Sequence record: OX016465
Strand: one strand, 5' to 3'
Length of the DNA: 64,000 nucleotides
Source of the DNA: Escherichia phage vB_Eco_Tribble
Shown piece by piece: positions 24,327-24,877 of the stretch. The notes under the pieces are model-generated. The model ran no database searches, was not told the DNA's origin, and saw nothing but the letters and a program-made list of their open reading frames with translations. The translations under genes were made by a program, and so were the position numbers. Positions within the stretch are counted from its first letter, which is position 1. Each line of letters begins with the position of its first letter.

Positions 24327-24364
24327 ACTTTAGTTGATTGTTAAGTTGTTTGTAAAGAACCCTC

Positions 24365-24545
24365 AACAGAAGACTCTTTAGAAACTTGGTAGATTTTTAA
24401 CGTGGCTACTACCATCCACCCATACCTCACATCACCATACCATACCTGACCGGACCTAACCAAACTCCACAGCACCATACATCACATCACACAACCTTAT
24501 TAAAAGACCCTGTTTAAAGACCTTTTAAAAAGGTAAGTCTCATTT
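24365..24545. repeat. Intergenic repeat copy B (G-poor CA-rich tract plus conserved box)
   Basis: Homologous to 23101-23270 including GGCTACTACCATCC, CCTAACCAAACT and TTAAAAGACCCTGTTTAAAGACCTTTTAAAAAGG. Confidence 0.6.
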
Positions 24546-24660
24546 TAATGTAGCTGAGACTAACTACCCATACCAAACAGCACCGCACTATGCCTTACCC
24601 CACCTCACCGAGCCTCGCCCCACATCACTTAAAAAACCCTTTTCAAAGACTCTTAAGTGA
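24546..24660. repeat. Partial third repeat copy with inverted repeats
   Basis: G-poor tract CCCATACCAAACAGCACC…CCTTACCCCACCTCACC; 7-bp inverted repeat AGTCTCA/TGAGACT; 11-bp perfect inverted repeat ACATCACTTAA…TTAAGTGATGT. Confidence 0.5.
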
Positions 24661-24877
24661 TGTTGGTGAGTACCCGTTGGTTTATGCTGCTCAGTATACT
24701 CACCAAATTTTCTATGTCAACAACTTTTTATAAAAAAGTTCTGATAGCTATATGTGTCACGAAACAAAAGATTGTAAACAAGACACCTATTGCAAAAGAT
24801 GTGTCCAAAAGCTTACTTGCAACGTATGACAATACAAAGACAACCAGTATAAACAGAATGACTGTACTGAACATAGT

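Follow-up and report, generated by a model that had tools for sequence, protein, structure and literature searches.

A probable type II VIPR guide-RNA array beside the DNA ligase gene of Escherichia phage vB_Eco_Tribble

The island between the DNA ligase gene and its downstream neighbor in Escherichia phage vB_Eco_Tribble (record OX016465; the 64,000-nucleotide stretch that was analyzed is referred to here as the window) very probably belongs to a type II VIPR (Viral Interference Programmable Repeat) system of the SUSP1 clade, as its upstream array of guide-RNA genes. Such systems, recently described phage relatives of CRISPR, combine a stand-alone RAMP protein of small size (Vipr) with an accessory gene (vap) and with vrRNAs, each of which carries 9-16 YNNGG repeats and an invariable 3' tail that is pseudoknotted in the SUSP1 clade (bioRxiv 10.64898/2026.04.26.720920). 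Only the NN positions pair with double-stranded DNA, one target base being skipped per unit, and competing phages and satellites are repressed. The model system is that of Escherichia phage SUSP1, a member of the same subfamily as the window phage, whose vrRNAs are small RNAs of ~100 nt that co-purify with Vipr and repress in trans (bioRxiv 10.64898/2026.04.26.720920). A cryo-EM companion study found one Vipr protomer per pentamer and named the contact residues (bioRxiv 10.64898/2026.04.26.720927).

The array is real and very probably functional, and its kind is already known from these 2026 preprints. New to this analysis are the particular targets predicted, a confirmation of the targeting rule obtained independently, and a picture of the locus as modular boxes, tracts and tails; neither Felixounavirus nor integrase targets are named in the published VIPR text. 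The anatomy, the conservation pattern, the protein identity and fold, the tail covariation and the target matches were obtained in this analysis; RNA expression, ribonucleoprotein formation and repression are taken from the literature. The array was picked out from raw sequence alone, and it belongs to an RNA-guided DNA-binding system that has been proposed to predate CRISPR. For the window, its value is one of annotation. The record of phage wV8 (NC_012749) labels vrRNA units merely as a direct repeat, 'DR_4' (59418-59475 and 60811-60868), and other records carry over these units a 'repeat_region', short hypothetical ORFs or nothing, with vipr and vap1 listed as hypothetical proteins.

Anatomy of the island and its vrRNA units

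The window is a Felixounavirus sequence; over the 3.1 kb around the island, its identity is 99.9% with Escherichia phage Barry and 91-97% with many Felixounavirus records. Every gene around the island lies on the minus strand, and the gap was therefore read on that strand. Its extent, ~566 bp (24312-24877) from the ligase stop to the next gene, bears out the preliminary description in that the gap is real; however, ~150 bp of it is a conserved minus-strand ORF of 48 aa of membrane type, which the statement that neither strand holds a convincing ORF had overlooked. The truly noncoding remainder is ~415 bp, and two tandem units lie inside it. The neighboring "unknown gene" corresponds to the protein partner Vipr, with its start most likely at ATG 24311 and not at GTG 24326. 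Since the earlier reading was made on the plus strand, the GGY/NN pentamers of the minus strand, the small gene and the protein partner had all escaped it.

Among 18 aligned distinct sequences, the 48-aa ORF is present in six (the window and five related loci), absent from eight and replaced by another insert in four. A Moogle-type copy has only 60% DNA identity, yet retains an intact hydrophobic ORF of 49 aa with a GAGG ribosome-binding site. This persistence of frame and ribosome-binding site despite 40% DNA divergence suggests that the ORF is probably a real, optional small gene; it sits inside the island and is not part of the VIPR system.

Each unit follows one plan, in which a conserved 5' box precedes 11-15 pentamers of the form GGY+NN and a conserved 3' stem-loop/pseudoknot of ~40 nt (Table 1). 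On the minus strand, the proposed system would be arranged as vrRNA-C, vrRNA-B, vipr, vap1 and vrRNA-A, the last lying after the vap1 terminator, 1.2 kb downstream. The repeat copies B and C described earlier were recovered in this way, as was copy A at 23138-23232, 1.2 kb away. A period-5 GGT scan of the 64 kb detected these three tracts only, each of them on the minus strand; shuffled sequences gave none. Near the end of the window (62370-63322), a 101-nt direct repeat is present in three copies that are 77-100% identical and spaced 380-470 nt apart.

Table 1. Features of the putative VIPR locus and its surroundings in the window
Feature	Position	Strand	Description and basis
DNA ligase	26014-24878	-	ORF list; stop at 24878
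48-aa hydrophobic ORF	24728..24874	-	ORF list; PHROG 22006, E 8e-32; directly after ligase stop
Putative sigma-70-like promoter TTGACA-16-TATACT	24693..24720	-	Consensus scan, 11/12 positions; upstream of first guide unit
10-bp inverted repeat TTGGTGAGTA / TACTCACCAA	24706-24697 / 24672-24663	-	Read from sequence; conserved
vrRNA-C 5' box, type P2	24622..24663	-	Enclosed by 11-bp perfect inverted repeat
vrRNA-C guide	24570..24624	-	11 GGY+NN pentamers; NN = GG GA TC GA GG AA AT GC GC TT (AT)
vrRNA-C tail	24527..24569	-	Stem AGTCTCA/TGAGACT, pseudoknot GUAG/CUAC, then five T
vrRNA-B 5' box, type P1, AGGTCTTTAAACAGGGTCTTTTAA	24500..24523	-	Pattern search, 0 mismatches, none expected by chance; conserved
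vrRNA-B guide	24422..24496	-	15 GGY+NN pentamers
vrRNA-B tail	24382..24421	-	Stem UGGUAG/CUACCA, pseudoknot GUGG/CCAC
vipr, 195-aa RAMP-fold protein	23724..24311	-	Start ATG 24311 as annotated in relatives
vap1, 146-aa VIPR accessory protein	23281..23721	-	146/147 positions identical to SUSP1 agp038
Intrinsic terminator, stem AGCCTCTTCGGAGGCT + T run	23254..23269	-	Terminator scan; after vap1
vrRNA-A, third unit, outside island	23123..23243	-	5' box 23243-23221; guide 23217-23163 (11 pentamers); tail 23162-~23123

The 3' tails provide the structural evidence. The 7-bp inverted repeat AGTCTCA/TGAGACT of the preliminary description is present (24536-24542 / 24555-24561), but with a spacer of 12 nt instead of 14, and constitutes helix S2 of the vrRNA-C tail. 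The vrRNA-A tail contains the stem GGCAG/CUGCC and the pseudoknot AAGG/CCUU. Four tail sequence types were found, and both helices are kept in all of them: S1 occurs as GUAG/CUAC, GUGG/CCAC or AAGG/CCUU, and S2 as AGUCUCA/UGAGACU, AAUCGGA/UYCGAUU, UGGUAG/CUACCA or UGGCAG/CUGCCA. In the tail alignment, 90.7% of the cells are paired (26-43% in slid controls), with the pseudoknot helix paired in 100%, and compensatory changes on both sides occur in 9 of 12 pairs, a count that derives from four tail lineages only and so from few independent events. The earlier suggestion of a structured noncoding RNA proved essentially right, with two guide RNAs encoded and the 7-bp repeat forming a 3' tail stem. 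Folds of whole vrRNAs were not more stable than those of shuffled sequences (z +0.3 to +0.5); only the tail and the P2 hairpin are structured. An Rfam covariance-model search of the window returned no match at gathering score, and the sole match with E<1 in the interval 23000-24900 was a chance match of 17 bits inside vap1.

The 11-bp perfect inverted repeat reported earlier is also present (ACATCACTTAA-N20-TTAAGTGATGT, at 24622-24632 / 24653-24663) and encloses the 5' box of vrRNA-C, AGAGTCTTTGAAAAGGGTTTTTTAAG. One such repeat would be expected by chance in roughly every 64 kb; it is taken as real because it is conserved across phages and recurs in other units. As RNA, it forms the P2 hairpin (-16.9 kcal/mol, z -5.4), and a P2-type box also precedes other units in relatives. 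The vrRNA-C box would act like a promoter or, alternatively, as a hairpin for RNA processing. In the unit-by-unit anatomy, the box of vrRNA-B reads AGGTCTTTAAACAGGGTCTTTTAAT. Within the window, a pattern search found the 5' box motif only at vrRNA units, for which reason its candidacy as a general phage promoter motif was rejected, and the box matches the sigma-70 consensus poorly.

The sigma-70-like sequence upstream of vrRNA-C would function as a promoter, and it hardly varies among the 18 distinct sequences that were aligned. The conserved 10-bp inverted repeat over its -10 region is a possible operator for the vrRNA/vipr unit. The vrRNA 5' ends would be generated either by a promoter in each box or by processing of a transcript from the promoter at 24720; no statement on 5'-end formation was found in the main text of bioRxiv 10.64898/2026.04.26.720920. 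A degenerate copy of the 5' box, GAGTCTTCTGTTGAGGGTTCTTTACAA (24376-24350, minus strand), lies just upstream of vipr with no tract after it, a hint of a promoter role for the box.

The Vipr protein and its association with GGTNN tracts

The window Vipr differs from its SUSP1 counterpart (YP_009199429) at 4 of 195 residues (97.9% identity), and the published residues H17, K33, E71, M72, R138, C173, D177, W178 and R179 are the same, with the same numbering, in both proteins. It is a stand-alone RAMP of ~20 kDa (RRM core, G-loop, thumb) found outside any CRISPR locus. The vap1 gene lies directly downstream of vipr, and the gene order is that of the published SUSP1 locus. Moreover, every 5'-box and tail module of the window units also occurs among the four SUSP1 units. 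A Pfam search with the 195-aa protein gave no match, and PHROGs gave 'unknown function' only. Staphylococcus phage SA1 (GenBank GU169904, 147 kb) contains a segment, vipr included, that is 93-99% identical to the Felixounavirus region; this record looks chimeric or contaminated.

The link between tracts and protein was established through a blind DNA-pattern scan of IMG/VR for (GGTNN)x6GGT, for which we estimated a chance expectation of about 0.05 matches. At least 120 loci carry the pattern. Many of the loci listed hold variable-NN tracts rather than microsatellites, often several per locus with short conserved punctuation between them, and a homolog of the 195-aa protein is encoded in 33 of 120 loci among the matches listed (tblastn). 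In the loci whose coordinates were compared, this homolog adjoins the tracts on the same strand, and distant homologs retrieved through the protein (37-39% identity) are also flanked by tracts. The recurrence of tracts and protein together indicates that they form one module. Once this link had appeared, other candidates considered for the tracts were dropped: clustered recognition sites for primase, an R-loop or T4-type origin, a plus-strand rut site for Rho, and a two-tetrad G-quadruplex resembling the GGTTGG motif of the thrombin aptamer.

Arrays of 3-11 GGTNN tracts were also seen in five IMG/VR contigs of unrelated viruses (L037, L047, L125, L044 and L124), with punctuation such as AAGGCTAATG or GGCAGTT between the tracts. 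A distant Vipr homolog lies beside the tracts in the first three; none was detected in L044 or L124. The arrays of these contigs probably represent other VIPR types.

Guide variation and satellite targets

Using the 195-aa protein, 18 related loci were fetched from IMG/VR and their upstream regions were aligned. Across the 18 aligned distinct sequences, the boxes and 3' segments, like the promoter sequence, are nearly invariant and the tracts are hypervariable in both their NN positions and their length, which changes in 5-nt steps with the GGY register kept. Upstream units number one to three per locus: two at most loci, three at one locus and one in SUSP1. Nineteen loci yielded 80 units and 64 unique guides of 9-19 pentamers, in which the NN positions use all 16 dinucleotides; the scaffold triplets, ~800 in number, were GGT in 538 cases, TGT in 99, GGC in 65 and AGT in 47. 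The guide of vrRNA-A is identical in two other phages (loci L008 and L010). The repeat list of the Felix O1 genome paper gives other repeats, and the vrRNA tracts are not among them.

This variability bears on the proposal that the island is a replication origin or a packaging or recombination site, with the tracts serving as iterons or as a G-rich, R-loop-forming stretch of the replication module. The site does lie between ligase and polymerase-region genes, a strong promoter-like sequence is followed by a G-rich non-template strand, and repeats and inverted repeats are present. However, phages with 98% identity carry the supposed iterons in different sequences and numbers, the tracts are strand-specific, the same tracts accompany the RAMP protein in unrelated phages, and the cumulative GC skew has its turning points at ~19.5 and ~30.5 kb, with none at 24.5 kb. 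Repeat content of this kind and the missing skew turn do not agree with an iteron-type origin. A terminal repeat or pac site was also considered and set aside: in the genome table of UAB_Phi87, the first ORFs correspond to wV8 gp055-gp049, which lie a long way from the ligase gene (gp097), and the known 608-bp terminal repeat therefore appears to lie elsewhere (PMC4837284). The replication/packaging element entertained in the preliminary description is accordingly unsupported, and we regard an origin or packaging site as extremely unlikely.

Under the VIPR reading, the hypervariable NN positions would be guides. In the mechanism taken from the preprints, each pentamer would be bound by one Vipr protomer with GGY flipped out and the NN bases presented, and the resulting filament would pair with double-stranded DNA, leave out one target base in three and repress transcription. 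Candidate targets were sought in satellites, using as query the SUSP1 gene YP_009199407, which is said by the preprint to have a satellite homolog. Of 5,426 complete E. coli genomes, 474 contain a homolog of this baseplate gene; 11 satellite islands were fetched and searched with the published conversion, in which GGY becomes one wildcard. The satellites of E. coli chromosomes recovered (L150-L160) are ~10-12 kb long, carry Felix-like tape-measure and baseplate genes together with a large serine recombinase, and occupy at least four insertion sites (yciI/tonB, DUF72-yecD, ymdF/wrbA and lafU/dinB). Two of them have GGY/NN tracts of their own (L153, 4054-4113; L157, 21208-21257).

With a skip of one nucleotide, guide C matches the large serine recombinase gene of the yciI/tonB satellites (L150, L153) at 19 of 20 NN bases (site TGGAGAATCAGAGAGGAAGATTGCAGCGTT), and guide B matches the recombinase gene of the satellites at the DUF72/yecD site (L155-L157) at 25 of 28 (site CTGTGAAGAGATAGCTGGTTATTATCCTGCAATTATAGATGA). 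Both matches lie on the sense strand, where the base that is skipped is the third of its codon, and with skips of 0, 2 or 3 the matching fraction of these guides stays at the background level (<=0.75). In a null of shuffled guides, computed on five satellite loci with the last invariant unit counted (observed there: 25/30 for B and 19/22 for C), the observed score was reached in 0 of 300 shuffles for B and 1 of 300 for C. Among all 64 guides, those matching at >=85% numbered 0, 43, 0 and 0 for skips of 0, 1, 2 and 3, respectively, and the skipped base fell at codon position 3 in 30 of 38 matches within ORFs. The published targeting rule was thus reproduced independently on 64 guides, and guides C and B were assigned concrete predicted targets.

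The target matches of guides C and B are imperfect (89-95%), and an exact match with a 1-nt skip was found neither for guide B in genome_contigs nor for guides C and A in viral_contigs. For guide A, the best score in the 11 satellite loci was 16/20, equaled by 114 of 300 shuffles, so that no target there stands above chance; its target may be in some other element. Within its own window, no guide scores above background. The predicted effect of guide C is silencing of the large serine recombinase (integrase) gene in satellites between yciI and tonB, and that of guide B is silencing of the recombinase in satellites located in the DUF72 gene next to yecD; such silencing would block satellite mobilization. 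The direction of both upstream guides at integrases suggests that the phage blocks satellite excision or mobilization rather than acting on satellite structural genes.

The same matches weigh on two further readings of the tracts. According to the first, the tracts are cis-acting leader elements on whose GGU repeats Vipr or another oligomeric RNA-binding protein autoregulates the operon in the manner of TRAP, a notion that accords with the architecture of triplets and 2-nt spacers, with the position of unit B directly upstream of vipr, with a unit B tail that has no T run, and with the degenerate box copy before vipr. A protein-binding site, however, has no need of NN bases that match satellite genes at 89-100% under one skip rule; unit A lies downstream of the operon, past its terminator, and the SUSP1 vrRNAs repress in trans according to the preprints. 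A cis leader is very unlikely on these grounds. The second holds that the tracts are a functionless pentanucleotide minisatellite varying by slippage and that the genuine content of the region is the small ORFs annotated there (e.g., BARRY_0084 and BARRY_0085). Slippage-type variation is indeed visible, as in the CAGGT counts of one guide family, and short ORFs are annotated over the tracts in some genome records. Against this, the order of the NN bases is not random when set against satellite genes, with the 43 guides above matching under one rule only, and conservation with covariation is seen in the boxes and tails on either side; moreover, length steps of 5 nt would break any reading frame, which excludes coding by the short annotated ORFs. 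A minisatellite is therefore improbable in the extreme, and the guide-array assignment is retained.

The single SUSP1 upstream unit (L015/L148) consists of the 5' part of C fused to the 3' part of B, one unit is duplicated at locus L018, and the members of one guide family differ in their number of CAGGT units, which looks like slippage. Unit number changes through recombination within tracts, as seen in chimeric guides and in fused or duplicated units. Guides are also swapped wholesale between phages with ~98% identical flanks, and many of them match satellite genes at 95-100%. An active, undescribed process that writes target-derived dinucleotides into the GGY scaffold, amounting to adaptation without Cas1, is conceivable but doubtful; the alternative is turnover by slow point mutation and unit shuffling.

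Comparison with SUSP1 VIPR, class 1 CRISPR-Cas and TRAP

The closest known system is that of SUSP1, which the window locus resembles in gene order, in GGY/NN pentamers with a pseudoknotted tail, in its box and tail modules, and in 1-nt-skip targets within an E. coli satellite that carries Felix-like tail genes. The two differ in that the window phage has two vrRNAs upstream and one downstream, as opposed to one and three in SUSP1, an arrangement seen in its sequence exactly as published, and in their guide sequences; window guides C and B point specifically to integrase genes, those of two satellite families that differ in insertion site.

Class 1 CRISPR-Cas systems, in which a backbone of Cas7, Csm3 or Cmr4 assembles on the crRNA, are a more distant comparison. 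The window lacks a CRISPR array, cas1/cas2 and other cas genes: its repeat search found no array of identical direct repeats with unique spacers, and cas1/cas2 are absent among the neighbors, which are ligase, vipr, vap1 and small unknown genes. Whereas the guide of a class 1 system supplies a contiguous sequence, that of VIPR is non-contiguous, 2 bases per 5 nt being set against 2 per 3 target nt, and VIPR is phage-encoded and represses rather than cleaves.

TRAP of Bacillus is an oligomeric protein that binds (G/U)AG triplets separated by variable 2-nt spacers in the trp leader RNA. A TRAP-like attenuator was dropped as a candidate after the linkage of tracts and RAMP protein was found in IMG/VR. 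The likeness lies in an oligomeric protein bound to conserved triplets with variable 2-nt spacers. The protein folds are unrelated, however, and whereas the spacers of TRAP sites carry no information, those of VIPR are the guide.
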